Positions 20,810 to 47,596 of a stretch of 64,000 nucleotides of DNA are shown here, piece after piece. The notes under the pieces were generated by a model. The model saw only the letters and a list, made by a program, of their open reading frames with translations, had not been told where the DNA came from and searched no databases. Source of the DNA: SAR202 cluster bacterium AG-426-M11 (GTDB taxonomy: Bacteria > Chloroflexota > Dehalococcoidia > Lucifugimonadales > UBA826); assembly GCA_003213095.1 (NCBI GenBank), contig QCNV01000004.1, forward strand, positions 4,949-68,948. The letters are read 5' to 3'. Made by a program: the position numbers and the translations under genes. The stretch's first letter is position 1. Each line of letters begins with the position of its first letter.

Positions 20810-20876
20810 TTTTTATCTGGTAGTTAATAATTATGAATCCAAAAGTAAAAAACTTTGAATTTTAAAGGAGATATCT

Positions 20877-25289: not shown

Positions 25290-27110
25290 ATGAGATTTAA
25301 AAAGTTTTATTTAATAGCTACAACTACATTATTAATTGTGATGACTCCTATTTTAATTATGACTATCATCACATTAGGCAACAACTTAAAAGACAGGATT
25401 TCTGATGAAGAAACTAAAGTATCATCAGAAGTTCAATCGGCCATGCCAAATTCTGATTTTTTTAGAATCGCACCAACATTCACTCCTGTTCCTACATATA
25501 CTCCTGTTCCTACATATACTCCTGTTCCTACTTTTACTCCTGTTCCATTACCAAATCAAGTGCCTACACCACAACCAACTCCCACACCAATCCCTATGTA
25601 CATTTCTCCAACCCCATTGATCGCTTTATGCACTTATGCTAACCCTTCTATTCCTAAAATGACAGAAAACGAACTTCAACTTCTTAAGTCAAATATTGGC
25701 AATGCTATGTTCCTACCTTCAAAAATTTTCGGAGATGAGACAACTAAACTTGTTACCTTTGGAATTAACGAAATCAACATTGGAACAAATTCGCCTAACT
25801 CAATTCAACTTTATGACGATGGGACTCATGGTGATTCAGTAGCAGGTGACAATATTTTCACTAGAGCATGTCTAGACAGAAATGATCTTGAATTAGATTA
25901 CGATTTAATCAATGGGCAATCTGGAAGATTTACACTAAATAACGCAATGCTAAATGTTGTTCATCCCTCTTTAAGAAACAATATTCCCTATGAACAATTT
26001 ACTCAAAACCTTTTCTCCACACAAAATGTAATGTTTTATGCTTTAAGCGAAAAACATCTTAAAGCTCAACACGGGTCCCAAAATGACTTTTTAAATCCTA
26101 GAAGCTGTTTAGTATGTATAGAAATTTTAAAAACATTTGGAGATATTATTGATCACCTAATTCTTGTCCCCGATAATCCTATTAATACTACTAATTCTGA
26201 GTATTACCGAATCTCGGATAACGTTAAAGGAATCATGACTTACGGAGATGCTATTTGCGATCCAGTCAGATGGCAGGACCAAGGGAAAAATGAAAGCATC
26301 AATGAATATTACATTCAGACTAAATTTGGATGTCCCGCAAAATTTGTCGATGGCAAAAATTACAATAAACTCAAAGGAAATATTTGGTTCAGCTCAACTT
26401 CTTTCGATGATTTAAACGAAACATTTGCTCAATGGATAGGAATTGGACCCAAAAACATTAAATTCCCTGGAAATGATATCGCGTGGAACTCTTTCTCTGA
26501 CTACAAAATAGACTCTTTTTCATCTGTTATGGGTCCATTAACTACTAATCTAGTTAACCCCAAAATTGGCAAAGATTCTACTCTTAAAATTAAAATTTCA
26601 GACACTCAAACATCTGAAGCAAAACTTCGATACAACCCTACTACTAAGACTTTTACTATGGTCCCAATCGATGAAGTTACAAAAGAGTATGACGACATTC
26701 TTTTATATATGATGGGCTTAAAATCTTATGATGATTCACAAAAAAGATATTTCTATCTAGACCCAAAAGAAATTAATTTAAAAGATTGTGAAAGTTCAGA
26801 AGAAAATGAACTGATTTGTAATAATTCATTGATCACTAAGGATGAATATGGTCGTATGATTGAGTTTGGGGTAAAGGAAATGGTTGAGCAATTTGGAGAA
26901 AGAGATCCGATTTACAACCCAAGTGCTATAAATTTAAATTCTCCCGTGATTGTATTAACTAAAAATCTACCTACTGAAGCAGAGATAGCTTATTATCACA
27001 CGTTATTTAAGTGGTGGGGACAATCTTCACAATCTATCCCACAATTAGGACTATCTTACATAGAAGCAACTAAGGGATTAGGAGAAATCACAACTGGTAT
27101 CCCCAGATAA
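25290..27110 (+). CDS. Membrane-anchored/secreted protein with Pro-Thr linker and LYDDGTHGD (choice-of-anchor X-like) motif
   Basis: N-terminal TM helix, PTFTPVPTYTPV repeats, LYDDGTHGDSVAGDNIFT. Confidence 0.7.
   Translation: MRFKKFYLIATTTLLIVMTPILIMTIITLGNNLKDRISDEETKVSSEVQSAMPNSDFFRIAPTFTPVPTYTPVPTYTPVPTFTPVPLPNQVPTPQPTPTPIPMYISPTPLIALCTYANPSIPKMTENELQLLKSNIGNAMFLPSKIFGDETTKLVTFGINEINIGTNSPNSIQLYDDGTHGDSVAGDNIFTRACLDRNDLELDYDLINGQSGRFTLNNAMLNVVHPSLRNNIPYEQFTQNLFSTQNVMFYALSEKHLKAQHGSQNDFLNPRSCLVCIEILKTFGDIIDHLILVPDNPINTTNSEYYRISDNVKGIMTYGDAICDPVRWQDQGKNESINEYYIQTKFGCPAKFVDGKNYNKLKGNIWFSSTSFDDLNETFAQWIGIGPKNIKFPGNDIAWNSFSDYKIDSFSSVMGPLTTNLVNPKIGKDSTLKIKISDTQTSEAKLRYNPTTKTFTMVPIDEVTKEYDDILLYMMGLKSYDDSQKRYFYLDPKEINLKDCESSEENELICNNSLITKDEYGRMIEFGVKEMVEQFGERDPIYNPSAINLNSPVIVLTKNLPTEAEIAYYHTLFKWWGQSSQSIPQLGLSYIEATKGLGEITTGIPR
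25482..25546 (+). repeat. 18-bp coding tandem repeat (about 3.6 units) encoding TPVPT(Y/F)
   Basis: ACTCCTGTTCCTACATAT x2, ACTCCTGTTCCTACTTTT, ACTCCTGTTCC. Confidence 0.9.
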
Positions 27111-27111
27111 T

Positions 27112-27978
27112 CTACTCTGATTCCCACTCAACTTCAAAAACTGTATGGGTACCTGGTAGCCCTTTTAATTCAAATTCTATTTCTTCCCCAAACTTTAAGT
27201 CTCCTGCAGAATCAGTCATTCTCTTAGTGACAGAGGATATTAAAATTTGTTCAGCTGTTGCTTTAGCTGAAATTCGAGCAGCTTCATTTACTGCACGTCC
27301 AAAATAATCACCATTTTCTAAAATAGCCTCTCCAGTATTTAATCCAATTCTTACATTTATAGGTAAATCAGGTTGCCTTTCTCTTAATTGTTTGAGTTCT
27401 TTTTGTATTTGAATTGCGCACAAAACACCATTTCTACTACTAGTAAACGCTGCCATAAAACCGTCACCCATTTCTTTAACAATAAAACCTTCGTTTTGTC
27501 TAATTAAATCACTCAAAACTTCTTCATGAATTCTAGAAACTTCTCGGGATTTAATATCTCCCAAAGTTCTAACTAAGTCTGTAGAACCAAACATATCACT
27601 AAACAAAAAGGTGACTGTTCCACTTGGAGGAGGAGCAATATTTTTACCGTCAACTTCTTGGATTTGTTCTATGACTACTACTGTCGCTTTACCTTCTGCC
27701 AAATCAAACCTATCTCCATCAGTTAATTGAATTACTTCAGATGGATTTAAAAATTTACCATTAAAATTAGAACCGTTTGAACTATTCAAGTCTCTAGCAA
27801 AAGCCTGATCTTTTTCCAACCAAAATTCAATGTGGGTCCCAGACACATAAGGATCATCTATCACAACATTGCATGACGGAGATCTCCCAACAGTCATCCT
27901 GTTGGTTGTTAAAATTTGCCTGTCACCTTTGGATTTTGCTGATGAAACTTCTATAAAAAATGCCATATTAACCCTCAA
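27112..27978 (-). CDS. FHA domain fused to a class III adenylate cyclase
   Basis: FHA: VGRS...VSGTH...DLNSSNGS. Cyclase: FSDMFGST, KEMGDG, DYFGRAVNEAAR (K/D pair typical of ATP specificity). Confidence 0.92.
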   Translation of the reverse strand: MRVNMAFFIEVSSAKSKGDRQILTTNRMTVGRSPSCNVVIDDPYVSGTHIEFWLEKDQAFARDLNSSNGSNFNGKFLNPSEVIQLTDGDRFDLAEGKATVVVIEQIQEVDGKNIAPPPSGTVTFLFSDMFGSTDLVRTLGDIKSREVSRIHEEVLSDLIRQNEGFIVKEMGDGFMAAFTSSRNGVLCAIQIQKELKQLRERQPDLPINVRIGLNTGEAILENGDYFGRAVNEAARISAKATAEQILISSVTKRMTDSAGDLKFGEEIEFELKGLPGTHTVFEVEWESE

Positions 27979-28113
27979 AACTAATCATAAAAATTTTAGC
28001 ATATTATAATTTCAAAATCTGAAGCTATATTTCTAACAGATAAAAAATACTGTGCAACAACATTTTAATTTAACATTGAAAAAGATATCAAAAAAATATT
28101 ATTTAGAACAAAT

Positions 28114-29601
28114 CTAATTATTGATCATTTTTTCGTAAAGATTCGAATGCAACCCTATTAAATCTTGATGTATTTTGTGGTTTTTTAGATTGGGATAATA
28201 TTTGTCTTCTATTTCCGTTTCAATCTGATCAAAATCTCTTATTTTCCCTAATGCCTTTAATATCAAAATTGATACCCCTCTTCCTGTATCTTGATTATCT
28301 TTCGAAATATTTATCTGGTGCCCTAAAACATCAGATGTCGTTTGAATCCACCAAGGTAAGTTTTTTATGGCTCCTCCACTGGCTATCACTTGTGTTTCAA
28401 CATCTACAAAACTTTCTAACATTTTATAAACCAAAAATAATCTATAACTCACGGACTCTAACATTGACTGCAAAATTTCTATAGAAGTATTGGAATATTT
28501 CAATCCAGTAATTGTAGCTTTAGAATTATTTGACCAGCCTAATGCTCTTTCTCCTAATAAAAAAGGTAATGATAAAACTCCATGTCCACCTGGTTGTAAT
28601 TTTATTAATTCATTATTTAATTGATTTATTTCAGGAACTTTCAAGTTACTATTTGCCCAATTAATCAGATTCCCTCCTTCTGAAAAAGAACCTCCCAAAA
28701 GAGAATATTTACTATGTAATTGATAGCACCACAAACCTTGTGGGATTTTATCTATTTTTGAATCTGAAAGAATTCTTATTGCAGCAGTACTTCCTATCGT
28801 TATAGCAATTTTATTTCTATTATTACAACCACTTCCAACAGTTGCTGCTAAACCATCTCCAACTGATAAAAAGAATGGAGTGTCTGATAATTTCTTCCAT
28901 CTTTTTAAGTATTTTTTATTTAAACCCATTTCATATTTGTCATAAGGATTTAAATTAGGTAGATTTTCTTCAGATATGCCTAAATATTTAATAAATTCTG
29001 CGTGCCATTCTAATTTGTTTCTATCAAATAATCCGCTCCAAGAAGAAATAGAATAACTTGCATTAAAACTTGGATTTTCAAACCATTTTGAATAAATATA
29101 AGTAGAAACATCTATAAATTTGTCGATTTCTTGATAATCGTTGAGGTTATCTTTCATCCACATTATTTTTGAAGGAACATACGAAGTATGTTGAGCTGTT
29201 CCAGTTTGTTGATGAAGTATTTTTTCGTCAAAATCGTTTTTTATTTGATCAACTTGTTGATTGGATCTAGTATCTGCATAAGTAAAAATTGGGGTAATTG
29301 GGTCTCCATATTTATCAACCCCTAATAAAGTGCTTGCCATAGAATCAAAACCAACTCCGATAACTTTTTCAATATATCCTTCAGATTTTTCAAGGACGTC
29401 ATCTATGGATTTCTCAACTATAGAACATAACAGTTCTGCATCTTGCTCAGAAGTGCCATCATTCTTACTTATAATCGTATGTGGAATAGTTACGGAAAAT
29501 TGGGGCAAAATATTTCCGCTCAAATCAAAAAATGAAGTTTTTACAGATGAAGTTCCTATATCTACTATAAGTAATGACTCATTTATTTTTGTTTGTTCCA
29601 A
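28114..29601 (-). CDS. FGGY-family carbohydrate kinase (gluconokinase-like)
   Basis: VDIGTSSVK, TYADTRS, GDG, PFLLGERA, ASGG. Confidence 0.85.
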   Translation of the reverse strand: MEQTKINESLLIVDIGTSSVKTSFFDLSGNILPQFSVTIPHTIISKNDGTSEQDAELLCSIVEKSIDDVLEKSEGYIEKVIGVGFDSMASTLLGVDKYGDPITPIFTYADTRSNQQVDQIKNDFDEKILHQQTGTAQHTSYVPSKIMWMKDNLNDYQEIDKFIDVSTYIYSKWFENPSFNASYSISSWSGLFDRNKLEWHAEFIKYLGISEENLPNLNPYDKYEMGLNKKYLKRWKKLSDTPFFLSVGDGLAATVGSGCNNRNKIAITIGSTAAIRILSDSKIDKIPQGLWCYQLHSKYSLLGGSFSEGGNLINWANSNLKVPEINQLNNELIKLQPGGHGVLSLPFLLGERALGWSNNSKATITGLKYSNTSIEILQSMLESVSYRLFLVYKMLESFVDVETQVIASGGAIKNLPWWIQTTSDVLGHQINISKDNQDTGRGVSILILKALGKIRDFDQIETEIEDKYYPNLKNHKIHQDLIGLHSNLYEKMINN

Positions 29602-29743
29602 AATTTTATACTTCTTTACTGTTCATATGATCAAGATTACAAAAAATCATAGATACAAATCTACACAAACTTAAATTAATTAGTTAAAGCGGTAAAGTCT
29701 TGTAAAATGATTTGTCTTGATTTAGATAGAATTTTATCAGATT

Positions 29744-32700
29744 CTATCTACCAAAATCTGATTCATAGACTTGAGGTGCGCCAGAAAAATTAGTAACCCC
29801 AGGATCTCCTACCCAATAATTCAAAATTAAATTTGAGTTAGAAATAGCAGCAAACTCTAACAAACCATACTGATTAGTTCCGGGATTAAACATCAACATC
29901 AATTCTGATGAATTGGAACTTTCTTGTGTACAAATTCCAATAGTATAGGTACTCGAAAATTCATGATTATTTGCGTCTACCAATAAATCTACATTATCAA
30001 AATTTTTATAACCAGAGTTACCAGAAAAACATCCTGAAGAATTAATACCTGCTACTAAATTAGCATTTGGATAAAAGTATGCATTCTGAGCATTCGCACT
30101 AGTTATACTCCAAAAAAATGGTGCTAAACCTTCAATAAAAATATCGTTAGAATCATATACAGAGACAGTTCCTGTCTTTCCTGACCAATCGCCAATAGAA
30201 GTAAATCCTCCGCCTCGGTTATTAAAATTGGATGATTGATTAAAACCTGAATTTTGAGACATTATTTCTATAGATAAATAGTCCGAAGGTTCGCTATTAC
30301 CACCATTTTCATAATAAGCAATAGCATATAGTTGATATTTACCAGGTTCTAAATAAATATCATCGATATTCCAATAATTCCCATCGAATTGGGATATAAA
30401 TGTACCACCTATAAAAGTGCCATCTGAAGTATATAAATCAATGTATGCACCACCACTATTATTTCCAAGATCTAACTTCCCTTCAAATGAGACATTAGGA
30501 GAATAAGAAGTCGACGTAAATTCTCCTTCAGATATCATGCCACCAATGACAGGGGCATTACGAATTTCTTCTGTAACTTCAATAAATAAAGTTTCAGAGG
30601 GTTCACTATAAATTTGATTATTAGAATATTGATCCATCATCACAGATTCTGCCCAAATCTCATAACTACCAACTTCCAATTCACCATTTGGATATATAGT
30701 CCAACTACCCTGATAGTCAGCATATCCTTTTCCTAATTGTCTGCCATTACCCCACAAAATTACCTCAGAATTTGAATCTGCAAATCCTCTGAAAAACGGA
30801 TCCTGAAACCTAGTTATTGTTTTAGCATTAACTTCTCGTCCAGAATCATTATCAAAATAATACATAGTCAAATCACGTGGAGCATTAATGTTTTCAGAAG
30901 TAATTTCAATATATAAATAATCTGAATCATCACTAACTCTTTGCGGATCACCAGGATCATATGAATATGCCCATATTGCATATTCACCTATAGGCATTTC
31001 ACTTTTTGAACATATATTCCATTCGCCATAATCAGACCAACCTTGGCCTATTTCACCAAATTCAGATTGTAATACAACTTCTGTAAATTGATCTGCTTGT
31101 CCTCTAAAACAAGGAAATCGTTCTGAAGTGCTAGTACCAGTAATTTGTGTCCTAGCATCATTATCCCAAAAGACCATACTTAACCCACTAGGCGGTTGAA
31201 GTGTTTCAACAAATATCTCAATATATAGATAATCTGAATCATCACTAATTCTTTGACGATCATCAGGATCATATGAGTACGCCCATACTGCATACTCTCC
31301 TATAGGCATTTCACTTTGTGGACATATATTCCATTGGCCATAATCAGACCAACCTCTACCTATTTCCCCAAATTCAGATTGTAATACAACTTCTGTAAAT
31401 TGATCTGCTTGTCCTCTAAAACAAGGGAATCTTTCTGAAGTATTAGTGCCAGTAAGTTCTCTTTGAGAGTCATTATCCCAATAAACCATGCTTAATTTAC
31501 TAGGAGCACTTGGTGGGGGTGATGGAATAATCTCAAAATTATAGTCTTCTGAAGGAATGCTTAAAAAGCCATCATCGGGATCATATGAAATAGCATATAT
31601 TGAATATTTTCCTATAGATAAGAAATCAAAATTTTGAGAATACCAATTTCCATTAAAATCCGAGAATGATTCACCAATCAATCTTCCATTAGAAGAATCA
31701 AAAATTTCAATTCTATGGAATGGCTCAGAGGTACCTGAAATGCTTATCCAACCATCAGTAAATGTAGAATCGTAAGAAGAACCCCATGTTCCATTTTCAG
31801 TTGAACCTTCAATTGAATTTATTTCAGGTTGTTGTATAGATTGACCTTTAATTATTATTGGAAGACCTGGAGAGATTTGACTCATATTTCCAGCGATATC
31901 AGTCGCAAAATACTGAATCAAATAATCGCCCGGTTGCAATGAAAAGATTTCTAAGTCCCAGCTACTACCTTCGACTTCAGTCTCTCCTATAAAGTACCCA
32001 TCACTGGTTACTACTTCTATAAGAGCTTCTTCAGTAAAAGTGCCACCAATAATCGTAGGGGAATCCGAATCACCTTCTTCAAAAAGAATTGGTTGCCTTA
32101 AGCCTGAAGGAGCCTGAGTATCAATATTTACTGTAGATGAAGGTGAAGGGTCTCCTTCATTTCCTGCTTCATCTGTAAGAATCACATAAACATCATGTTT
32201 ACCATCATTAATATAAGAGGATTGAAGTGTCCAAACTCCATTACTTCTTACTGTACTAGAGCCTAGTTCATTCCCTCTAGTGTCAAATAAAGTTACATTA
32301 ACATCAGGCTTTGCATTACCCGTAAATGAAGGAGTTGATTCATTTGTAATGCCATCATACGAGTATCTTCCCGAATCACTTGATGCAACCAATTGAGGTG
32401 CAGAAGATTGACCAACTCCTTGAACTAAAACTTCTACTAAAAGCTCACTAGAACTTGAACTTTCATTTCCAGCCCTATCTGTTGCAACAGCATAAACTTC
32501 TTGTTTTCCAAACATTCCTTCTGTAGTAATAGACCAAATACCCCTAGAATTAGAATATCCAGTACCTATAACTGCCGATCCTACAAAAAGTTCAATCAAT
32601 GTAGTCGGATCAGAAGTTCCTTTAAATGTTGGACTTGTATCTGTTGTCACATTATCTGAATCAGATTGGCCTGTATCACTTTCATCGCTCAAATCGGGCT

Positions 32701-35191
32701 TTGAGGGAGTTGATATTTCTGTATCAATAGTAATTTTTAATGGAATTTCGCTTTCAGTTACATTACCTACAGCATCAGTAGATCTAGCTGTAATTTCATG
32801 AGACCCTTCATCAAGAGGCTCAGATTTTATTGACCATTTACCAGATTCTGAGACAGTAGTCTCACCTATAACTTGTCCACGAGTATTTAATAGCTCAATT
32901 TTAATTCCAGGAGAAGATTTGCCTTCAAAAACTGGAGAAGGATTTTTAGTAATGTTATCCGAATTTGATTCACCGGAATCATCTCTAGACATCAAATCAA
33001 CATCTGAAGGGGCACTAGCAGTAGATTCAATTTTAACAAAAACGGGCTCAGAAAGATCACTTTGATTACCAGCCACATCTTGTGATCGTGCAATAATCAC
33101 ATACTCTCCATCTGATAAGGTTTCAGAAATAATAGACCATAGACCTGTATTTCCAGCTGTAGTTGAGCCCAAAACGAGACCATCGCCATCTACAAGTTCT
33201 ATGTATGCCAGAGGGTCAGCTATACCAGTAAATTCTGGATTCAAGCTTGATGTAAGGTCATCAGTACTTGAAGCGCCCGTATCAGTTTCTCTAGTCATGT
33301 CAGGTTTTGAAGGAGAAGTAATAGATCTATCTACTGTCACCATTAAAACAGGAGAAGGTTCGCTAAAAACATCATTATCATTCAATATTTTTGTATAAAT
33401 TTGATGTTCCCCTTCAGATATATCAGAATTAGAAATGGTACATATACCAGTTTCTTGATAAGAATTCGATCCTGGGAGACATTCTCCAAGAAATATATCG
33501 TTACCTCTGTAAAAAATTACTTCATCAGATTCTGGATTTATATTTGGATGTTCAACCGAAAGATAAATTGTATTTGCGTTAGTAATGTTATCTGTGTCAG
33601 ATTGCCCAGTATCGGAAGAAGTAGGATCATCAAAATTCACTATGTTCGGATTAAGATACGGAATTCCTGAAGCTATAGGCATAGTGGCGTCAAATTGGGT
33701 GATATTAAACACATAATCACCTACACCACCGCCACTATATAATCTAATTGTGTAAGTACCTGTTTGACGAATAGTCCATTCTGAAATCCTTGCGTTGTAA
33801 TTGCCCCCAGAATCATCATCTGAGACTTCGATTTTCCCTTTTGGATCCAATAGCTCTATATACGCATCTACATCTCCAGTACTAGCACCTATCATTGAAA
33901 AATTGAATATCTGACCTTCAACACCTTCAAATGGAATTTCATGAACTTCATTAGAATCTTCAAACACAGAAATCAATTCTTCGTCAATACTCATAGGGTC
34001 TTTAGAAATTATTACTTCTCCCTGTTTTGGTTCTGAAGATGAAACAACAGGGTCGGAAGGAGTTGGTAATGGTTCTGGAATAATCGCGGGTGCAGGTTGT
34101 TGTGGTAACGTTGGTTCCGGTATAGATGCTTGAGGTGGTACCGAAGAAGAATCAGCTCCAGTAGCTAAACCTACAGTATCGCCTTGATTCAAAAAGAAAA
34201 ACCCTCCGCCACCTGCTACTAATAAAACTACTATTCCAACTACTGCCAAAACAGGCATAGGAACAGGAGAGTTAGATTTTGCAGAAGATTTAGCTGGAGT
34301 GGCTGGAGTTTTTGCCATTACTTGAGTTCCTAACCCCTTAGGCATTACTCTAGTTCTTGCTACGGTAGCAGGACCTTCAGATAAAATTTTTTCTACTTTT
34401 TCTAACTCAGTAATTAATTCTTCTGCTGATTGAAATCTATTCTCATTATCTTTTGCCAACGATTTCAATAATGTTTCTTCTAATTCAGGAGGGAATTCAT
34501 CTAAATAATCATTTAATGGAGGGGGTTCATTATTCATATGCCCGTTTAAAATATCAAAATCACTTTTACCATTGAATGGGGGTTCAGCCGTAAGCATTTG
34601 ATATAAAACACAGCCCAAAGAATATATATCTGTCCTTGAATCTACTCCTTCACCCTGAATTTGCTCGGGGGACATATATAAAGGGGTACCGACTGTGGCA
34701 TTAGCATTAGTCACTTTTGATAAAACTTCTGCTGAAGCTATTCCGAAATCAATTAACTTTACATCACCACTGTCAGTAATAAGCACATTAGCCGGTTTAA
34801 TATCTCTATGGGTTATTCCAGAAGAGTGAGAAACAGCAAGTGCTGCAGCAACCTGTTTTGTCACTGCGACAGCTCTTTGAATAGGAAGTTTTCCACCTCT
34901 TTCTAAAATTCTTTCCAAGTTTTCTGTAACGAATTCTGTGACAATATAATGTTGACCATTCTCTTCTCCATGATCAAACACTTGGATAATATTAGGATGC
35001 TGAATGGTAGCAAGTATTGAAGCTTCTCTTTGAAATCTCTCTAGAAATTCTCCATCGCTGATTGAAGCAGACAAAACTTTAACAGCCACAATTTGACCAG
35101 AAGCAGGATCTTGGGCTCTGTAAACAGCTCCCTGACCACCTTCACCTATAAGGTCTAGTATCTGATAACCACCAATCTCATTTAATTGCAT
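29744..35191 (-). CDS. Transmembrane Hanks-type Ser/Thr kinase with PPC-like domain and many bacterial Ig-like repeats (1815 aa)
   Basis: GEGGQG, VAVK, HRDIKPAN, DFG, GTPLYMSPE, one TM helix (VLAVVGIVVLLVAGGGGFFFL), repeated DTGxSxxDNIT Ig-like units. Confidence 0.93.
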   Translation of the reverse strand: MQLNEIGGYQILDLIGEGGQGAVYRAQDPASGQIVAVKVLSASISDGEFLERFQREASILATIQHPNIIQVFDHGEENGQHYIVTEFVTENLERILERGGKLPIQRAVAVTKQVAAALAVSHSSGITHRDIKPANVLITDSGDVKLIDFGIASAEVLSKVTNANATVGTPLYMSPEQIQGEGVDSRTDIYSLGCVLYQMLTAEPPFNGKSDFDILNGHMNNEPPPLNDYLDEFPPELEETLLKSLAKDNENRFQSAEELITELEKVEKILSEGPATVARTRVMPKGLGTQVMAKTPATPAKSSAKSNSPVPMPVLAVVGIVVLLVAGGGGFFFLNQGDTVGLATGADSSSVPPQASIPEPTLPQQPAPAIIPEPLPTPSDPVVSSSEPKQGEVIISKDPMSIDEELISVFEDSNEVHEIPFEGVEGQIFNFSMIGASTGDVDAYIELLDPKGKIEVSDDDSGGNYNARISEWTIRQTGTYTIRLYSGGGVGDYVFNITQFDATMPIASGIPYLNPNIVNFDDPTSSDTGQSDTDNITNANTIYLSVEHPNINPESDEVIFYRGNDIFLGECLPGSNSYQETGICTISNSDISEGEHQIYTKILNDNDVFSEPSPVLMVTVDRSITSPSKPDMTRETDTGASSTDDLTSSLNPEFTGIADPLAYIELVDGDGLVLGSTTAGNTGLWSIISETLSDGEYVIIARSQDVAGNQSDLSEPVFVKIESTASAPSDVDLMSRDDSGESNSDNITKNPSPVFEGKSSPGIKIELLNTRGQVIGETTVSESGKWSIKSEPLDEGSHEITARSTDAVGNVTESEIPLKITIDTEISTPSKPDLSDESDTGQSDSDNVTTDTSPTFKGTSDPTTLIELFVGSAVIGTGYSNSRGIWSITTEGMFGKQEVYAVATDRAGNESSSSSELLVEVLVQGVGQSSAPQLVASSDSGRYSYDGITNESTPSFTGNAKPDVNVTLFDTRGNELGSSTVRSNGVWTLQSSYINDGKHDVYVILTDEAGNEGDPSPSSTVNIDTQAPSGLRQPILFEEGDSDSPTIIGGTFTEEALIEVVTSDGYFIGETEVEGSSWDLEIFSLQPGDYLIQYFATDIAGNMSQISPGLPIIIKGQSIQQPEINSIEGSTENGTWGSSYDSTFTDGWISISGTSEPFHRIEIFDSSNGRLIGESFSDFNGNWYSQNFDFLSIGKYSIYAISYDPDDGFLSIPSEDYNFEIIPSPPPSAPSKLSMVYWDNDSQRELTGTNTSERFPCFRGQADQFTEVVLQSEFGEIGRGWSDYGQWNICPQSEMPIGEYAVWAYSYDPDDRQRISDDSDYLYIEIFVETLQPPSGLSMVFWDNDARTQITGTSTSERFPCFRGQADQFTEVVLQSEFGEIGQGWSDYGEWNICSKSEMPIGEYAIWAYSYDPGDPQRVSDDSDYLYIEITSENINAPRDLTMYYFDNDSGREVNAKTITRFQDPFFRGFADSNSEVILWGNGRQLGKGYADYQGSWTIYPNGELEVGSYEIWAESVMMDQYSNNQIYSEPSETLFIEVTEEIRNAPVIGGMISEGEFTSTSYSPNVSFEGKLDLGNNSGGAYIDLYTSDGTFIGGTFISQFDGNYWNIDDIYLEPGKYQLYAIAYYENGGNSEPSDYLSIEIMSQNSGFNQSSNFNNRGGGFTSIGDWSGKTGTVSVYDSNDIFIEGLAPFFWSITSANAQNAYFYPNANLVAGINSSGCFSGNSGYKNFDNVDLLVDANNHEFSSTYTIGICTQESSNSSELMLMFNPGTNQYGLLEFAAISNSNLILNYWVGDPGVTNFSGAPQVYESDFGR
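30900..31502 (-). repeat. Tandem 312-bp (104-aa) domain duplication inside the kinase ectodomain
   Basis: Two copies of SERFPCFRGQADQFTEVVLQSEFGEIG...SDDSDYLYIEI, near-identical at DNA level and offset by 312 bp. Confidence 0.9.
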
Positions 35192-35382
35192 AACATTTTT
35201 CTATTTTTATTGTGCCAATTGATTTATCAAAGTTTATAGAACATTTTATTACACTCATTGAATAACGAACAGACAAATTACTACAGAGTGGTGACACCTA
35301 CTCAATTCAAGTGTAACTACTTGAATTTTTTTTAGATTTTAACAAAAATAGACTATATAAAATCAAATTAGGATTTAAACCA

Positions 35383-36039
35383 ATGGATAATAGTTCTGAT
35401 TTAATAAAAATTATCATCGCAGATGATCATGCAATTTTTAGAGCAGGAATTATCAAAGTGCTGAATCTAGATTCTCAATTCCAAATTATAGGTGAAGCCA
35501 CAAACGGTTTAGACGCTATTTCATTAATCAATAATTTGTCACCAGATGTAGCACTCCTAGACATCAAAATGCCTGGAAAAACAGGAATTGAAATTGTTAG
35601 AGAATTAAACACAATCAACTCGTCTACAAAATGTTTGGTTTTGACAAACTACGATGACCCAGAATATATCCTAGATGCTATAGGTGAAGGTGCAAATGGC
35701 TATGTATTAAAAACTATTGAACCATCAAATCTAATAGATAGCGTTAAGGCTGTATCTGAAGGTGAAATAGTTTTAGATCCCGCAATAGCAACCTTAGTAG
35801 CAAAACTATGGCGCCAAAGACAGTCTCCCAATAATGATATTGTAGGAATAAAATCTCTTACAGACCGAGAAAAAGAAACTTTAGAGTTAGCATGTGGGGG
35901 ATTACGAAACAAAGATATTTCCAGTGAAATGGGTATTAGCGTAAGAACTGTAGAAGGTCATTTCAATAGAATTTTTTCTAAATTAGGCGTTTCTTCAAGA
36001 ACTGAAGCTGTGTTACAAGCAGTTTCAGAAAATGTTTAA
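35383..36039 (+). CDS. NarL/LuxR-family response regulator
   Basis: IIADDH, LLDIKMP, YVLK, LTDREKE...SVRTVEGH...KLGVSSRTEA. Confidence 0.95.
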   Translation: MDNSSDLIKIIIADDHAIFRAGIIKVLNLDSQFQIIGEATNGLDAISLINNLSPDVALLDIKMPGKTGIEIVRELNTINSSTKCLVLTNYDDPEYILDAIGEGANGYVLKTIEPSNLIDSVKAVSEGEIVLDPAIATLVAKLWRQRQSPNNDIVGIKSLTDREKETLELACGGLRNKDISSEMGISVRTVEGHFNRIFSKLGVSSRTEAVLQAVSENV

Positions 36040-36040
36040 T

Positions 36041-36826
36041 TTATAACTTGAAAATTTTAGAGAAAAAACCACTTTTATTTTTACCCGTAGTAACACATCC
36101 AACCAAAACAGTAATATTATCTGTTCCGCCATTCTGATTTGCTAACTGAATTAATAGATTTGGAGTTTCAGCAAGTTCTTTTTTAATCAGAGTATCTTGA
36201 ATCACATGATCTGATACCAACCCAGACAAACCATCAGAACAAACTAATACTACATCACCTTCATATATATCCATTGAAGTTACATCAACCTCTACTTCAG
36301 AGTTCAATCCAATTGCTCTTGTGATTACATTATTTCTAGGATGGTTGATAGCATCTTCAGGCTTAATAATGCCCAATGCAACCTGCTCTGCAACCCAGCT
36401 ATGATCTTGAGTAATTTGAATAATTTTTTCAGATCTCAAAAGATATGCTCTACTATCTCCTACATGAGCATAAAACAATCTATTGTCATAAAACAGAACT
36501 GAAGTAAATGTTGTACCCATACCTAAAGTTTCAGATTCTTTAGACTTTTCATAGACTTTAAAATTTGCGTGCTTTAAAGAATTTATAAGATGTTCTTCAA
36601 TACGATTAGATTTTAATATTTTAAAATTTTCAACAAAATATCTTACAGACAATTCACTTGCTACTTCTCCAGCTTCATGGCCTCCCATTCCATCTGCAAC
36701 AACTAACAAAGTGTAATCTTTTTGTTTGTCAGCATGATGAATAAAATAATAATCCTCATTGTGATCTCTTACGAGACCTACATCTGTAGCACCATGTGAT
36801 TCAACAACGAATTGCGTTTTTTTCAT
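36041..36826 (-). CDS. PP2C/Stp1-family Ser/Thr protein phosphatase
   Basis: TDVGLVRDHNED, VADGMGG, HVGDSRAY, CSDGL, GGTDNIT. Confidence 0.95.
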   Translation of the reverse strand: MKKTQFVVESHGATDVGLVRDHNEDYYFIHHADKQKDYTLLVVADGMGGHEAGEVASELSVRYFVENFKILKSNRIEEHLINSLKHANFKVYEKSKESETLGMGTTFTSVLFYDNRLFYAHVGDSRAYLLRSEKIIQITQDHSWVAEQVALGIIKPEDAINHPRNNVITRAIGLNSEVEVDVTSMDIYEGDVVLVCSDGLSGLVSDHVIQDTLIKKELAETPNLLIQLANQNGGTDNITVLVGCVTTGKNKSGFFSKIFKL

Positions 36827-36924
36827 TCCTGTTTCCCAATTAAAGTATTTATACAATAATTAATTAATCTTATTACGTTCTACATTGTTATAATAGTGGA
36901 AAAATTGAAGAAATAAATTTACAT

Positions 36925-37848
36925 ATGTTTTCAAATTTATCTTACATAATAGATGTTATAGTTTTCTCTCTCTCTTTATTAATCATTATGGGAGCAGTGA
37001 GTTCTTTAGTTCTATTAGTATGGAAATTATCTAAAGACAAAGAGAAACAATCTTCATTGCAAATCATAGAAGAGATCAAAAATTCGCCTAACCTTCAGCC
37101 ACAAACAACAAATCTAACTGTTTCAAACTCTGAAATTCAACAAAGAGAAATGACTTTGGAAGTAGCAAAAAATCTTCTTGAAAGAGAAGGGTTCAAAATT
37201 TCCACACAAAGTGAAAAACAAACAAATTCCAGATCAACTGTTCCAACTGTATCCAACTCAAACTTTTCACAGAATCTTCCTACAAATCATCCTGCATTTA
37301 TGTTGTTAAAAACTGGGAATGTCCACATGAAACATGGAGATTTCCCAGCTGCTATAAAAGATTTTAGCGATGCATTAATACTAAATCCGTCTTATGCTGG
37401 TGCGTACAATGCAAGAGGTATGGCTAACCGCAAAATGAAAGATTTTCAGTCAGCACTTCAAGACTACAATTCAGCCTTAAAATTACACAATAATCTAGCT
37501 GCAGCTTATAACAATCGTGGAGTAATATTCATGGAAATCAGACAATTTGAAGCTGCTTTAAAAGACTTCGATAAAGCTTTAGATTTAGAACCTCAAAATT
37601 CATACGGTTATTCTAATAGAGCTGTAGCGTACAATTACATGCGAGATTTCAATAAAAGTATTAGTGAAAGTACTAGAGCGGTAGAGATCAATCCCCATTT
37701 GCCAGAGGCATATGTAGTCAGGGGAATCGCAAAAATCCAGATTGGAGCCAATCAGGCTGCAACATTAGATTTTGACGTTGCTGAATCATTGGGCTACAAA
37801 AGAGTTGATATAGAAGATCGTCTTAATGCGATTAAACAATCCATTTAA
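36925..37848 (+). CDS. Membrane-anchored TPR protein
   Basis: N-terminal TM helix and several TPRs (AYNARG, AYNNRG, YSNRA, AYVVRG). Confidence 0.88.
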   Translation: MFSNLSYIIDVIVFSLSLLIIMGAVSSLVLLVWKLSKDKEKQSSLQIIEEIKNSPNLQPQTTNLTVSNSEIQQREMTLEVAKNLLEREGFKISTQSEKQTNSRSTVPTVSNSNFSQNLPTNHPAFMLLKTGNVHMKHGDFPAAIKDFSDALILNPSYAGAYNARGMANRKMKDFQSALQDYNSALKLHNNLAAAYNNRGVIFMEIRQFEAALKDFDKALDLEPQNSYGYSNRAVAYNYMRDFNKSISESTRAVEINPHLPEAYVVRGIAKIQIGANQAATLDFDVAESLGYKRVDIEDRLNAIKQSI

Positions 37849-38386
37849 AATTAGCAAGAAATCTACCTTACTGATATCAATTATATTTTCTGCAATTGTA
37901 TCTATAGATTTCAACACATCGATTTATGAAAACATATATTTATTTCTAAATTTATCAATAATTTTTTGGGGATTAATAGTACTAGGAATTTCAGATTATT
38001 CCTCTAATAAAATTTCAAACAAAATCATCTTAATGTTAATTTCTATTAGCCTGATATTTAGCGCTATTGATTTACAAAATAATTCATTTACATTAGACAA
38101 CCAATCTCTTCTAATACATATAAGCGGCGGAATACTAGGATTTACTGTTTTTTTGGTGGTTTATCTTCTCCCAAAACAAATATTAGGAGGTGGAGATGTA
38201 AAACTGGCAGGGTTAATTGGAATAATTACAGGATTCCCAATGGTCACCATAGTCCTATTGTTAGGATTATTTAGTTGTGTGATTATAGAACGAATCAAAA
38301 ACACATCTTCATCTATTCCTTTAGGATTCTACCTAGTAATAATCACTATAATCTATTTAGGAATATTTAATATTTTCTTTCAATAA
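37826..38386 (+). CDS. A24-family prepilin/pre-archaellin peptidase (short form)
   Basis: ISDYSSNKISN (first Asp) and LGGGDVKL (GxGD), multiple TM helices. Confidence 0.82.
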   Translation: MRLNNPFKISKKSTLLISIIFSAIVSIDFNTSIYENIYLFLNLSIIFWGLIVLGISDYSSNKISNKIILMLISISLIFSAIDLQNNSFTLDNQSLLIHISGGILGFTVFLVVYLLPKQILGGGDVKLAGLIGIITGFPMVTIVLLLGLFSCVIIERIKNTSSSIPLGFYLVIITIIYLGIFNIFFQ

Positions 38387-39479
38387 TTTCTTGTGTCAAT
38401 TTATCGGAATTCCTAGTAATTGGAATATTCCCTACGACAGAAGTACCAGAACCTAATTTAGAAACTACATCGACATTGCCTCCAACTCTTTCAGCTCGTA
38501 ATTTCAAATTCAAAAGTCCGAAGTGTCCTGCTTGAGGAACATTTGAAATATTATCTTCTTCAAATCCAATTCCATCATCTTGAATTTCAAAATCAATACT
38601 CTTTTCATTCCAAATAATAGATATAACCACCATTTCAGCTTTTGCATGTTTAAGTGAATTTAACAAAGCTTGACGAACAATATGAAAAATATCTTTTGAT
38701 ACGGGTCCAGGTAATTTATCTTGATCTAAATTTGACCTATAAATAATTTTAGTATCACCTTTTGTAGGATTTAAATCAATATTTTGAAGTAAAGCTACTA
38801 TAGCACTATCTAATCCAGTCAAAGCTAAATCATCATGACCTTTTTCTTTTACTAATTGTCTCAAATTTTGATCTGCATTTTTCACCATACTTACAATTTC
38901 ATCAACTTGATCTAATAAAGCTGAATCAGAAGATAATGTGTATTTCATTAAACCTAAATTCATCAGAATAGCACTAAGTTCACTCATAGTTTGATCATGT
39001 AAATCTGCAGCTAATTCTTTACGCATATCTTCTCGGCCTTGCTCAATCGCATCAAACTGCTCTATTCTTCTGAGCCTGTAGGCTAAAATTTGAGCTATTC
39101 TCTTTAAAAAGTTCTGCGAAATTTCAGGGTGATCAACAGATAATTTATCAAAAGAGTCTCTTGAAATCCTAAATAGGGAGCATTCAGTTCTCGCAATCAC
39201 TCTCGCAGTACGGGGGTTGGAGTCTAAAAATGCTATTTCACCAATAATAGACCCCGGTTTAATCCAAGCAACTGTAATCCATAAATCATTGACCTTTATT
39301 TCAACTAATGCCTCGCCTTTAACAAGTAAATCTAAGTTAGTAGAAATCTCTCCATAATCAACGATAATTTGATCTGATGAAACTATAACTTCGTTTCCAT
39401 AATCATTGAGAGATTCAATCAAATTTCCCATTTCATCAACTGAAAATATAGGCTCATCCAGTGAATTTTGCATTTCCAC
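38367..39479 (-). CDS. Soluble histidine kinase with N-terminal cyclic-nucleotide-binding domain (HisKA_3 type)
   Basis: GEIAFLDSNPRTARV phosphate-binding cassette, H-box ELAADLHD, NSLKHA, QDDGIGF, GHFGLLNL. No TM helix. Confidence 0.92.
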   Translation of the reverse strand: MEMQNSLDEPIFSVDEMGNLIESLNDYGNEVIVSSDQIIVDYGEISTNLDLLVKGEALVEIKVNDLWITVAWIKPGSIIGEIAFLDSNPRTARVIARTECSLFRISRDSFDKLSVDHPEISQNFLKRIAQILAYRLRRIEQFDAIEQGREDMRKELAADLHDQTMSELSAILMNLGLMKYTLSSDSALLDQVDEIVSMVKNADQNLRQLVKEKGHDDLALTGLDSAIVALLQNIDLNPTKGDTKIIYRSNLDQDKLPGPVSKDIFHIVRQALLNSLKHAKAEMVVISIIWNEKSIDFEIQDDGIGFEEDNISNVPQAGHFGLLNLKLRAERVGGNVDVVSKLGSGTSVVGNIPITRNSDKLTQEIIERKY

Positions 39480-39489
39480 TCATTTTCAC

Positions 39490-40158
39490 CTATTGGGCTG
39501 AGGATTGATTATATAAATTGACGCAATGATCCAAAAATGCGACACCAACGCTAGGCTGCAAATTTTCAGAAATTTGGATACCCAATGATTCTGCAATTAC
39601 CTGCAATTCTTTTTCCAATTGATTTAAAGTTATGTCTAATTCATTAGAAATTTCATTTAAATCCATACCATTACAATTTAAAGCTATGATTTCCAATTGT
39701 TGATCAGTGAAATTACTATTCGATGAATCTGAATGCCGATTATAATATCCAATTAATTTTTCAACTAAAACTTTATCTAAAACAAAATATCTTTGCTGAA
39801 CCAAATTCACAGTCCTAATCAACTCTCCAATATCATCTAGTGAGCTTTTTAAAACATACGCTTTTGCAATAGGATCATCGCCAATCAAATCTTGAATATA
39901 TGTCCAATCATCATAAGCAGAGACTATTACTATTCCAATTTCTGGAGATTGGCTTCTTATCAATTTACTTGCAGAAATCCCATCTAGTTTAGGCATTCGG
40001 ACATCTAAAACAGCAACATCTATTTTATGTTCAGAAATTGCTTCCACAGCTTGTAACCCATCTTCTACAACTGAAGATACATCAAAATTGATAGATAGAA
40101 CTCTTTTATATAAAGATCTTATGGGTTCCGAATCATCGGCTATTAAAATTTTTGACAT
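39490..40158 (-). CDS. Response regulator, REC domain plus degenerate LuxR-type HTH
   Basis: ILIADD, VLDVRMP, VSAY, YVLK. C-terminal FTDQQLEII...NEISNEL. Confidence 0.88.
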   Translation of the reverse strand: MSKILIADDSEPIRSLYKRVLSINFDVSSVVEDGLQAVEAISEHKIDVAVLDVRMPKLDGISASKLIRSQSPEIGIVIVSAYDDWTYIQDLIGDDPIAKAYVLKSSLDDIGELIRTVNLVQQRYFVLDKVLVEKLIGYYNRHSDSSNSNFTDQQLEIIALNCNGMDLNEISNELDITLNQLEKELQVIAESLGIQISENLQPSVGVAFLDHCVNLYNQSSAQ

Positions 40159-40163
40159 AAACC

Positions 40164-40772
40164 TTACTTTTTAGAAAGTAATTCATATACTTCTAATAAT
40201 TCTTGTTTGAGCTGTTCGATAGTGACTGTACCATGTTTATCTAATAGCTGTCCCACTTGAGGACGTACTTCAATTTTATCGGCAAACAGATCATCCATCT
40301 CACTTGAATCCTCATCAATAATTTCTGATACTTGAATTTCTTCAAATTCTTCATCAGAGTCTTCTTCTGAATCTGATTCTTCATCAGATGAGACTGATAC
40401 TGTTTTAAGATTTTTAGGTTTTTCAAAATTTGGAGTAACTGATGTCGCAGTAGATTCGGGACTAAGATCTTCAGCATCGATAATATTAATATCAGAATCT
40501 GAGTCTATACCTGCAGATTCAGATTGATCAGCTTCATCAACTTTCAATACAGGTTCGAATACATCTTCATAAATTTCAGGATCTAATTCACTCAAATCCC
40601 AAAGAGCTTCGGTATTGTTTGATGGATCTGTATCGTCAAACTTTTCTTCAATTATTTCAGAATCCAATCCATCTAAATCTGGTGTATCTTCTTTTTTGCC
40701 TCCAGTAATACCACTATCTATCTTCTTCATTACGTCGCCAAATTTATCGTAAATAGTTCTTCTTACATCCAT
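40164..40772 (-). CDS. Highly acidic archaellum-operon-associated protein
   Basis: D/E-rich disordered core with a short helical C-terminus (DDLF...VTIEQLKQELLEV). Lies 15 bp after arlJ. Confidence 0.6.
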   Translation of the reverse strand: MDVRRTIYDKFGDVMKKIDSGITGGKKEDTPDLDGLDSEIIEEKFDDTDPSNNTEALWDLSELDPEIYEDVFEPVLKVDEADQSESAGIDSDSDINIIDAEDLSPESTATSVTPNFEKPKNLKTVSVSSDEESDSEEDSDEEFEEIQVSEIIDEDSSEMDDLFADKIEVRPQVGQLLDKHGTVTIEQLKQELLEVYELLSKK

Positions 40773-40787
40773 TTATTTTTTCTCCTA

Positions 40788-44097: not shown

Positions 44098-44098
44098 A

Positions 44099-44803
44099 TT
44101 AAGCCTTAGCCCTAGAAACCGGAACAATTCGTATTCCCATAGCGGGTTCAACTTCAAATCCCATAATATTTCCAGTTTTATTATCTGCGCCTCGAATCTT
44201 AGCAACTTCCATAGTCTTTATAAGATTTGTCCCAGAAGAAGTCACTTGTAATCTCAAATAAGCATCACATATAGATCTAACTCTTAAAAGAAAATCTTCA
44301 TCAAAAGCATTTTCATGAACTGTGCAAGCAATAACCTGACCTTTTTCACAAACATCTTTTAAACCATTAAAAAAATCTTGAATTTTTTCACCCCCTGCCC
44401 TAGACACAAATGTAGTCAAAGAATCAATCACGATCATTTTTGAAGAATGCTGTTGTTGTATATGATTAGATAATTGATCGAAAAATAAATCGGGATCCTC
44501 GTTTTCAGCAGAAGAAGTAATAGGAAAAACTTGCAAGTCATTCATGAGAAAATAATCAGTAACTTCTTGCCCCAAACTTTCCATCTGTCTTAAAAATGCA
44601 TGAATATTTTGTTCAGTAGTATAAATTGTTGCTGATTTACCATCTCTTAAAGTACCCCAAATTAATTGCTGAGCAAAGGTACTTTTCCCTGATGCATCTT
44701 GACCTTCAATTAACATAACAGTTTTAAGTGGAATCCCTCCACCCAAACGCCTGTCAATTTCTACACTACCAGTACTGATTACTTCTGAAGATTGAGTTGT
44801 CAT
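44099..44803 (-). CDS. arlH: KaiC-like archaellum ATPase ArlH (FlaH)
   Basis: EIDRRLGGGIP, GQDASGKS, VIDSLT, RSICDAY, KIRGA...FEVEPAMGIRIVP. Confidence 0.94.
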   Translation of the reverse strand: MTTQSSEVISTGSVEIDRRLGGGIPLKTVMLIEGQDASGKSTFAQQLIWGTLRDGKSATIYTTEQNIHAFLRQMESLGQEVTDYFLMNDLQVFPITSSAENEDPDLFFDQLSNHIQQQHSSKMIVIDSLTTFVSRAGGEKIQDFFNGLKDVCEKGQVIACTVHENAFDEDFLLRVRSICDAYLRLQVTSSGTNLIKTMEVAKIRGADNKTGNIMGFEVEPAMGIRIVPVSRAKA

Positions 44804-44829
44804 TTTATGATCCTGATAACTTTATTTAG

Positions 44830-45804: not shown

Positions 45805-45819
45805 TTAGGTCACCAAGAT

Positions 45820-46308: not shown

Positions 46309-46323
46309 GATTTACTCCTGATA

Positions 46324-47509: not shown

Positions 47510-47596
47510 GTCTAATTATTCCTTATAAATAACTAAATCAATTTTTCAATCTACATTCTAACAGTACTACAAAGAAGATTGTAAGTATTGTTAAAT

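Follow-up and report, generated by a model that had tools for sequence, protein, structure and literature searches.

A candidate cyclic-nucleotide and two-component signalling module beside the archaellum genes of a marine Dehalococcoidia clade lacking detectable chemotaxis proteins

Chloroflexota such as Litorilinea aerophila and Ca. Lucifugimonas marina possess arl gene clusters for one and the same kind of horizontally acquired motor, the archaellum (passages of PMC12488501 and PMC10444878), and how such an acquired archaellum is controlled in bacteria is an open question in print. Passages of PMC12488501 state that CheF is absent in Chloroflexota and suggest that the motor may be connected to signalling by some other component; the terms response regulator, histidine kinase, kinase and cyclic do not occur in that paper, nor do response regulator, two-component or chemotaxis in the report on SAR202 cultivation (PMC10444878). 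A survey of 226 arl-positive Chloroflexota genomes lists chemosensory systems in 82 (F1 systems in 58, ACF systems in 24), allows that another mechanism may exist and describes a lone response regulator of 129 amino acids (aa) inside the L. aerophila arl cluster (bioRxiv 10.64898/2026.05.11.724246). Here we analyse a stretch of 64,000 nucleotides (the window) from the SAR202 cluster bacterium AG-426-M11 (positions 4949-68948 of contig C4, QCNV01000004.1), in which a 13.7-kb block of signalling genes adjoins an arl operon. We lean towards reading this block as a signalling module that is dedicated to the archaellum which a marine Dehalococcoidia clade without chemotaxis (Che) proteins acquired horizontally; the locus is a concrete candidate answer to the question of control.

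The closest described circuits share some, though not all, of the parts encoded here. In Synechocystis sp. PCC 6803, the cyclase Cya1 and the cyclic AMP (cAMP) receptor SYCRP1 govern type IV pilus motility (passages of PMC4284465). The proposed circuit resembles this system, as presented there, in that production of a type IV filament machine, and with it movement of the cell, would depend on a cyclase and a cAMP receptor. It differs in the receptor, a CRP-type transcription factor in the cyanobacterium but a histidine kinase signalling to NarL-type regulators in the proposed circuit, and in the machine, a bacterial pilus there but an archaellum here, whose operon is physically joined to the signalling genes. 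Cya1 also carries an FHA domain. Archaellum expression in Sulfolobus acidocaldarius is set by the Arn proteins, which comprise Ser/Thr kinases, phosphatases and an FHA protein (passages of PMC10249747 and PMC5300886). Arn has no cyclase, cAMP step or two-component system, and its FHA protein, the zinc-ribbon protein ArnA, is a partner of the vWA protein ArnB in a repressor pair and not an enzyme, with ArnR proteins as activators; the two systems were compared on the FHA domain, where the window's domain matches the ArnA chain 5a8i with E 1.7e-4, a generic FHA likeness, as GarA and OdhI score alike. In Haloferax volcanii, the decision between the motile and the non-motile state is governed by QarABC, which comprises a histidine kinase and two response regulators (passages of PMC13464002); this archaeal system answers to a quorum signal and, as far as those passages go, has neither a reported arl linkage nor a cAMP or Ser/Thr kinase layer. 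The F1 chemosensory pathway (CheY-CheF-ArlCDE) has a receiver-domain protein as the last link to the archaellum, as proposed here, but the window's genome has no detectable CheA, CheW, methyl-accepting chemotaxis protein (MCP) or single-domain receiver, and its kinase is of the HisKA_3 type with a predicted cyclic nucleotide (cNMP) input. Our search of the literature on archaella in connection with cAMP, cyclases, two-component systems or response regulators, with supplementary tables outside its scope, found no description of such a module, just as the original prediction for this DNA, made by a model from the sequence, knew of none. The module would be a variation on kinds of control that are already known.

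The source assembly (G000; 1.16 Mb, 50 contigs, 78% complete, approximately 34% G+C) contains a bacterial 16S gene and represents a streamlined marine Dehalococcoidia genome. In the following, G labels denote genomes, L loci, g genera and f families, with g1 and f1 standing for the genus and family of the window. Comparisons were made, among others, with G001 (94% complete), the congener G002 (97%), two genomes of a second family, f36 (G063, 99%; G111, 97%), and an order-wide sample of 301 genomes, 37 of them arlJ-positive and 264 arlJ-negative. Domains were called with Pfam against curated cut-offs, and operon packing was read from the coordinates of open reading frames (ORFs). The original prediction had named a series of signalling domains next to arl within positions 27112-40772, and Pfam finds all of them there. 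Its interval was correct for the signalling parts and had passed over two further genes, for an FGGY carbohydrate kinase (28114-29601) and a 202-aa protein (40164-40772); in the regulator encoded next to arlJ, Pfam detects the receiver but no DNA-binding domain. The block and the adjoining archaellum genes are arranged as follows.

27112-27978, minus strand: class III adenylate cyclase with a fused FHA domain, 288 aa (FHA-cyclase; Pfam FHA E 3.7e-17, Guanylate_cyc E 3.6e-15)
28114-29601, minus strand: FGGY carbohydrate kinase (Pfam FGGY_N/C)
29744-35191, minus strand: receptor Ser/Thr kinase, 1815 aa (Pkinase E 1.7e-55, Big_13/Big_6 repeats, PPC)
35383-36039, plus strand: NarL-family regulator with canonical LuxR-type helix-turn-helix (HTH) domain (Pfam Response_reg and GerE)
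36041-36856, minus strand: PP2C (PPM) Ser/Thr phosphatase (Pfam PP2C_2/PP2C)
36925-37848, plus strand: membrane-anchored TPR protein (Pfam TPR; transmembrane (TM) helix 11-29)
37826-38386, plus strand: type IV prepilin (class III signal) peptidase (Pfam Peptidase_A24)
38367-39479, minus strand: soluble histidine kinase with cNMP_binding, HisKA_3 and HATPase_c domains (cNMP-kinase; Pfam; without TM helix)
39490-40158, minus strand: operon regulator RR222, NarL family, with degenerate acidic C-terminal domain (Pfam Response_reg only)
40164-40772, minus strand: acidic 202-aa protein, mostly of low complexity, without Pfam family
40788-42359, minus strand: arlJ, platform protein (Pfam T2SSF; 72-96% identity in family relatives)
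42310-44205, minus strand: arlI, ATPase (Pfam T2SSE)
44099-44803, minus strand: arlH, KaiC-like (Pfam ATPase/KaiC)
44830-46851, minus strand: three arl accessory genes, encoding proteins of 324 aa (N-terminal TM helix), 162 aa (ArlF/G-like) and 175 aa
46862-47509, minus strand: arlB, archaellin (Pfam Arch_flagellin E 2.9e-23)
47555-47564, minus strand: extended -10-like element upstream of arlB (alignment of g1 and g2)
47597-48478, minus strand: SpoIIM-like membrane protein with five TM helices (weak SpoIIM match; f36 orthologue above the cut-off)

The gaps that separate arlJ, the 202-aa gene, the operon regulator gene and the cNMP-kinase gene measure 15, 5 and 10 bp, and all four genes lie on one strand. 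The end of the TPR gene overlaps the start of the A24 peptidase gene, and the NarL regulator gene (35383-36039) is divergent from the Ser/Thr kinase gene. No TM helices are predicted in the histidine kinase, the cyclase, PP2C or either regulator. The archaellum gene cluster is identified by its Pfam matches, with ArlI and ArlJ each encoded by a single copy in G000 (tblastn); the 162-aa accessory product matches Arch_flagellin, and the three accessory genes are syntenic in relatives. Since the A24 peptidase gene inside the signalling block is the sole A24 homologue in G000 (tblastn), its product is likely the archaellin peptidase.

Although it accounts for 1.2% of the assembly, the block holds two of the three receiver domains and one of the two Pkinase genes of G000 as well as its only FHA, class III cyclase, cNMP-binding and PP2C genes, and this clustering of signalling genes is far beyond chance. 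The inventories of G000, G001, G002, G012 and G007, in that order, are similarly small: FHA 1, 1, 1, 1 and 1; class III cyclase (Guanylate_cyc) 1, 1, 2, 3 and 1; cNMP-binding 1, 1, 2, 4 and 1; PP2C_2 1 each; Pkinase 2, 2, 2 (one weak), 4 and 1; and receiver (Response_reg) 3, 4, 3, 6 and 4. With one cyclase, one FHA domain and one cNMP receptor in G000, G001 and G007, a connection from cyclase to kinase is the only wiring available there, so that the reduced genomes make the wiring nearly unambiguous. The two other histidine kinases of genus g1 are HisKA types, each encoded beside an OmpR-type regulator, which leaves the cNMP-kinase as the only HisKA_3 kinase and the two regulators of the block as the only NarL-type regulators. 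Receiver domains number one each in the arl-less family members G008, G009 and G015 versus three to six in the arl-positive ones. G000 has just one more Hanks-type kinase gene (63217-64000, plus strand), a 736-codon frame that runs past the end of the window and has orthologues in G001 and G002.

Searches for CheW (PF01584, which also covers the C-terminus of CheA) and MCPsignal gave no matches in the whole G000 assembly at its 78% completeness, which extends to the assembly the original observation that the window contains no che genes. CheW was likewise found in none of the 13 family genomes of the order sample, including the 97% complete congener; as a control, the Che search gave matches in eight of 14 known genomes. 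G000 also has no single-domain receiver, its three receiver ORFs being 226-248 codons long.

The catalytic and ligand-binding parts of the block appear competent as judged by their conserved residues. The cyclase domain scores 56.5 bits against a PF00211 cut-off of 21.9, and its closest solved relative is Ma1120 (4wp3, E 1.4e-30). Its residues D128, K168, D172, D224 and R235 are invariant in five orthologues, from which activity is predicted, and N231, present in the window protein, is replaced by S or I in two relatives; we take these residues to be the metal-binding Asp pair, the Lys/Asp substrate pair of the ATP type and the transition-state Asn/Arg. The FHA domain (63 bits; PF00498 cut-off 20.7) has R32, S46, H49 and N68 invariant in five orthologues, and this Arg, Ser, His and Asn presumably form the phosphothreonine pocket. 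The cNMP domain (49.7 bits; PF00027 cut-off 27.5) aligns best to the cAMP-binding domains of protein kinase A (PKA) RI, and in that alignment its phosphate-binding cassette reads G-E-I-A...P-R-T-A, a predicted ligand site for cAMP or cGMP. Cassette residues G80, P89, R90 and A92 are invariant in six orthologues and E81 is D in one relative; we assume the customary roles for the Glu and the Arg. The histidine kinase is of the NarX/DesK type, and its six orthologues show no variation at H161, N274, D301/G303/G305 and G318-L322, which represent the H, N, G1 and G2 boxes.

The Ser/Thr kinase (Pkinase 188.7 bits; G-loop, VAVK, HRD, DFG and SPE motifs present) consists of a cytoplasmic Hanks kinase, a T/S/P-rich juxtamembrane stretch, a TM helix at residues 314-332 and an outer part of approximately 1480 aa; because a single TM helix follows the juxtamembrane stretch, the immunoglobulin (Ig)-like repeats are predicted to face outward. 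The kinase domain is 61-64% identical in g2. PP2C (PP2C_2 54.3 bits, PP2C 51.8 bits) contains NED, DGMGGH, GDSR, SDGL and DNIT stretches; for both enzymes we presume that these are the motifs that go by the usual names. A PP2C frame of the arl-less G009 (G009:C58:13109-13783) has one in-frame TAA, perhaps through decay or assembly error. The NarL regulator encoded at 35383-36039 has a canonical HTH domain, and its orthologues are restricted to g1, g2 and g6.

From gene content, catalytic motifs, operon-like packing, inventories and co-distribution we infer every arrow of the following circuit. The Ser/Thr kinase in the membrane, counteracted by the only PP2C, would create phosphothreonine sites; the sole FHA domain, fused to the sole adenylate cyclase, would read them and change cAMP output; cAMP would bind the sole cNMP receptor, the soluble HisKA_3 kinase encoded by the last gene of the arl operon; and this kinase would phosphorylate the operon regulator and probably also the orphan NarL regulator with its canonical DNA-binding domain. 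Both regulators would then set the expression of the arl genes and possibly also of the TPR/prepilin-peptidase pair. Our confidence differs along this chain. That the cNMP-kinase/regulator pair is specific to arl appears probable, and elimination and neighbourhood make the FHA-cyclase a likely input of the cNMP-kinase, a link that we hold with somewhat less assurance. On a route from the Ser/Thr kinase and PP2C via the FHA domain we are rather evenly divided, with a slight inclination to doubt; this input is plausible, though less arl-specific than the regulator-arl and cyclase-kinase links. A transcriptional output of the circuit has a small edge in our judgement. The original prediction had drawn the parts as a single pathway; its regulator-arl and cyclase-kinase links find good support in our data, its Ser/Thr kinase/PP2C layer is weaker, and the order of its arrows is a proposal.

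In g1 and g2 the whole block is syntenic from the SpoIIM-like gene to the FHA-cyclase gene, and in g6 the same order is kept as far as the broken contigs reach, with identities of 41-62% between the signalling proteins. The FGGY kinase gene lies between the Ser/Thr kinase and cyclase genes only in g1, the g2 cyclase gene following directly after that of the kinase, and its product probably stands outside the circuit. From arlJ to the cNMP-kinase gene the orthologous loci show similar packing, though with wider gaps in g2 and g6 (20-90 bp) and with gaps of 19-27 bp or an overlap in f36, and the TPR-A24 gene pair is kept in f1 and f36. Since collinearity also extends to the genes on either side of the block, little can be concluded from synteny inside the family, and the second family is more instructive. 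The original prediction had asked whether the signalling genes are unlinked to arl elsewhere; in f36 (G063 and G111, verified with Pfam) arlH-I-J, a 202-aa-like gene, the regulator, the cNMP-kinase, A24, TPR, SpoIIM-like, FHA-cyclase, PP2C and Ser/Thr kinase genes follow one another in this new order beside arl, and the FHA-cyclase, PP2C and kinase genes form one overlapping co-directional run. The f36 cyclase is the sole cyclase, and in G111 the cNMP-kinase is the sole cNMP receptor. Farther afield, a cyclase gene in G286 directly precedes genes for an operon-type regulator and a cNMP-kinase approximately 14 kb from arlJ, and in L050 the cNMP-kinase and regulator genes adjoin arlJ in inverted orientation.

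Two side observations concern the same loci. The SpoIIM-like protein travels with the module, its gene being located upstream of arlB in f1 and between the TPR and FHA-cyclase genes in f36 (L112, 6848-7732, minus strand). The G286 cyclase (L114, G286:C4 11670-13739, minus strand) is joined to a STAND NTPase frame, and its catalytic domain extends over two frames, perhaps owing to a frameshift or sequencing error.

Co-distribution with arl points in the same direction. The question, also raised by the original prediction, whether the signalling genes are equally present in arl-less relatives is answered for the cNMP-kinase and the NarL regulator by their presence in none of 13 genomes from seven arl-less genera of the family. 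Neither this result nor the linkage in f36 refutes the original prediction. Across the order, a full-length cNMP-kinase is encoded in 12 of the 301 genomes, namely in 11 of the 37 arlJ-positive and in one of the 264 arlJ-negative ones. CheW occurs in 14 genomes of this sample (six of the 37 arlJ-positive); no genome has both CheW and the cNMP-kinase, and 20 of the 37 have neither. The sole arlJ-negative holder of the kinase, G020, shows a clean deletion of 8.16 kb relative to G012, with flanks that are 96-99% identical. This deletion (L026, G020:C18 17738-17991 versus L022 407-8564) reaches from the arlB promoter into approximately codon 166 of the regulator gene, with an 8-bp overlap at the joint; it removes arlB-arlJ, the 202-aa gene and about 166 regulator codons and leaves the cNMP-kinase, A24, TPR and PP2C genes in place. 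G020 is a recent natural loss of motility genes and not a counter-example. The absence of the kinase and other module genes from G023 and G043 (both g2) was not taken as co-loss, because these genes are contiguous and one unassembled region suffices to explain it (ArlJ was not searched in G043).

The phylogeny of ArlJ was estimated as a quick tree with SH-aLRT support and midpoint rooting from 82 rows, after removal of rows in which the ArlJ match was shorter than 1200 bases or contained a stop. The tree unites f1 and f36 in one clade, nested within a clade of 27 rows to which L050, G286 and the loci with operon-type regulators also belong. The module thus probably had a single origin, after which it was retained with changes of gene order. 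A 202-aa-type protein is always encoded 3' of arlJ in the window's ArlJ clade. The archaeal rows L069 and L102 (Methanosarcinales, Methanocellaceae) group with the 33-row Chloroflexota clade of the window and do not fall outside the Chloroflexota rows as a whole, a placement that is unsure given the midpoint root and long branches. L061, filed as Proteobacteria bacterium UBA1148, is a 3.3-kb contig with arlI and arlJ, 51% identical to the window's ArlJ, and is probably mis-binned Chloroflexota.

The receiver of the operon regulator is intact (Response_reg 66.9 bits; D8, D9, D52, S80 and K104 invariant or nearly so in 14 relatives), and the protein belongs to a NarL-type family found at the arl clusters of several lineages. 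Its LuxR-type domain has a net charge of -10 versus +3 in canonical members and gives no GerE match at E 0.05, whereas seven of the 14 aligned relatives score, the best with 6e-13. The recognition helix of those regulators that are paired with a cNMP-kinase is acidic and different in every genus, in contrast to regulators encoded divergently upstream of arlB in other lineages, which keep an identical canonical recognition helix. The operon regulator may have lost DNA binding. By virtue of its canonical HTH domain, the NarL regulator encoded at 35383-36039 is the better candidate for transcriptional control in f1. The 202-aa protein, whose gene follows arlJ in all relatives, has three conserved short motifs in an alignment of six orthologues; Protein Atlas returned only uncharacterised Chloroflexota clusters for it, and when the operon regulator and the 202-aa protein were modelled as a complex the score was 0.00, which in a run without controls speaks neither for nor against binding. 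Weak likenesses to the 202-aa protein also occur after arlJ in L044, L049, L052, L053 and L060, with no regulator there.

Upstream of arlB, conservation is confined to the extended -10-like element (47555-47564), 46 nt from the arlB start: nine of its ten columns are invariant and the tenth is A/G in seven sequences from g1 and g2, and the spacer around it is variable. A promoter/terminator scan of 26500-46400 yielded 55 promoter-like sites versus 87.6 expected and seven terminator-like sites versus 8.5, and says nothing about where operons begin or end. Part of the window is contained in six sequencing runs that are recorded as RNA. Contigs from four metatranscriptomic libraries of two studies, with at least 90% likeness, lie on the genes for the Ser/Thr kinase, the FHA-cyclase, the cNMP-kinase, the regulator/202-aa protein and ArlJ/I/H/B, and in X14 and X17 they span the junction of arlJ and the 202-aa gene. 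These contigs were not counted as evidence of co-transcription, as they are strandless, assembled and without transcript ends, and DNA carry-over is possible; uncovered parts carry no meaning.

Several observations weigh against a dedicated module, and they fall into groups that bear on different alternatives. Absences of genes rest on assemblies that are 55-99% complete; in G012, with three cyclases and four cNMP-binding proteins, the wiring is not unique; the G007 cyclase frame (G007:C72:4913-5767) has one internal TAA, perhaps due to decay or assembly error; and as f1 and f36 belong to one ArlJ clade, which itself lies within the larger clade described above, the genome counts are not independent events. 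Much of what remains would suit a narrower arrangement in which only the cNMP-kinase and operon regulator serve the archaellum, while the kinase, PP2C, FHA-cyclase and second NarL regulator form a general-purpose set, concerned with envelope, growth or nutrient state, that lies beside arl by descent, with cAMP as a global signal. Pkinase and PP2C are indeed encoded in the arl-less genera g7 and g8, and one arl-less g8 genome, G015, has an FHA-cyclase without any cNMP-binding match; the sole PP2C gene of g6 lies elsewhere in the genome, between those for an MFS transporter and a CoA-transferase; genomes with one or two Ser/Thr kinases and one PP2C lead one to expect pleiotropy; the flanking genes for 606-, 151- and 221-aa proteins are likewise collinear between g1 and g2; and the f36 kinase lacks the Ig repeats and the f36 cluster the second NarL regulator. 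Yet f36 kept FHA-cyclase, PP2C and kinase beside arl after rearrangement, the cyclase has no other cNMP receptor to act on in G000, G001, G007 and G111, and no Pkinase, PP2C or cyclase was found in ten genomes of five arl-less genera, so that we regard a general-purpose set as rather unlikely. Even more so, pure coincidence of neighbourhood, with signalling genes functionally unrelated to the archaellum, is very improbable: compact genomes do pack unrelated genes tightly and synteny within the family runs past the block, but 11 of the 12 genomes with the cNMP-kinase are arlJ-positive and a single arlJ-negative genome has it, the genes are re-clustered in a second family, the regulator gene was co-deleted with arl in G020, and the prepilin peptidase gene is embedded in the block.

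A dedicated module need not act on transcription, and the output deserves its own weighing. Upstream of arlB, g1 and g2 have no regulator box in common, and no repeat typical of NarL sites is found there; together with the acidic, unconserved recognition helix, which weighs against simple DNA binding by the operon regulator, this also counts against the circuit as drawn. The phosphorylated operon regulator could instead bind ArlH/I/J or the 202-aa protein and switch rotation or assembly, as CheY does via CheF in archaea. A LuxR-type domain that Pfam does not detect, that is strongly charged and whose helix varies by genus while relatives elsewhere are canonical would fit such a protein target, as would the position of the regulator gene directly after arlJ and the conserved 202-aa gene, and passages of PMC12488501 report the absence of CheF in Chloroflexota and describe switching behaviour in L. 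aerophila. Against this, the helices that define the HTH fold are still alignable and half of the relatives aligned score as GerE, relatives with a canonical HTH domain are encoded divergently upstream of arlB in the classic position of an activator, and control of a histidine kinase through a diffusible second messenger would be slow for taxis; we therefore judge a protein target to be unlikely. A bolder version, in which the cAMP-gated pair has replaced chemotaxis altogether, with extracellular signals passing from the Ig-repeat kinase via FHA-cyclase and histidine kinase to a regulator that has given up DNA binding and acts on the motor or on the 202-aa protein, seems to us equally improbable; if true, bacteria would have invented their own way of steering an archaeal motor, independent of CheY and CheF. 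Dedicated control of the archaellum, with an output that is by a small edge transcriptional, is the reading that we retain.

Regulators at arl clusters are not confined to the window's family. A receiver domain is encoded within 2.5 kb of the arl cluster in 34 of 69 ArlJ loci outside the family, and 57 receivers lie in 265 kb near the clusters, whereas 268 kb at distances above 5 kb contain 16; this count relied on single-sequence phmmer queries from the window, with which distant receivers may be missed, and its rule for cluster edges missed regulators upstream of arlB in L045 and L047. At least four arrangements can be distinguished: kinase-regulator-receiver-arlB, a divergent regulator upstream of arlB, receiver-regulator-receiver after arlJ, and that of the window itself. 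The trio of receiver, receiver-HTH regulator and receiver after arlJ is found in Ca. Lucifugimonas marina (L086, 12911-14747) and in further clusters of the SAR202 type (L071, L083, L085, L089, L092, L095, L103-105 and L108), and a second trio, encoding a HisKA_3-like kinase, a receiver-HTH regulator and a receiver, is located ahead of arlB in L075, L080, L084, L091, L097, L100, L107 and L110. No mention of these post-arlJ and pre-arlB arrangements was found in the papers on Chloroflexota archaella cited here. Within the window, two genes for family III CoA-transferases and one for a carboxyl transferase (18448-22478, plus strand) are metabolic and unrelated to the signalling block.

The general picture is one of a locus that bears on a large group of abundant marine bacteria without Che proteins. 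NarL-type regulators and HisKA_3 kinases beside arl in many Dehalococcoidia, among them the cultivated Ca. Lucifugimonas marina, may be the phylum's general solution to archaellum control. If the circuit proposed here is true, it would provide the first physiological role for a cNMP-sensing histidine kinase, it would be a short cascade in which a Ser/Thr kinase, a second messenger and a two-component system form successive layers, and it would place a host-built regulator on a motor taken from another domain of life.

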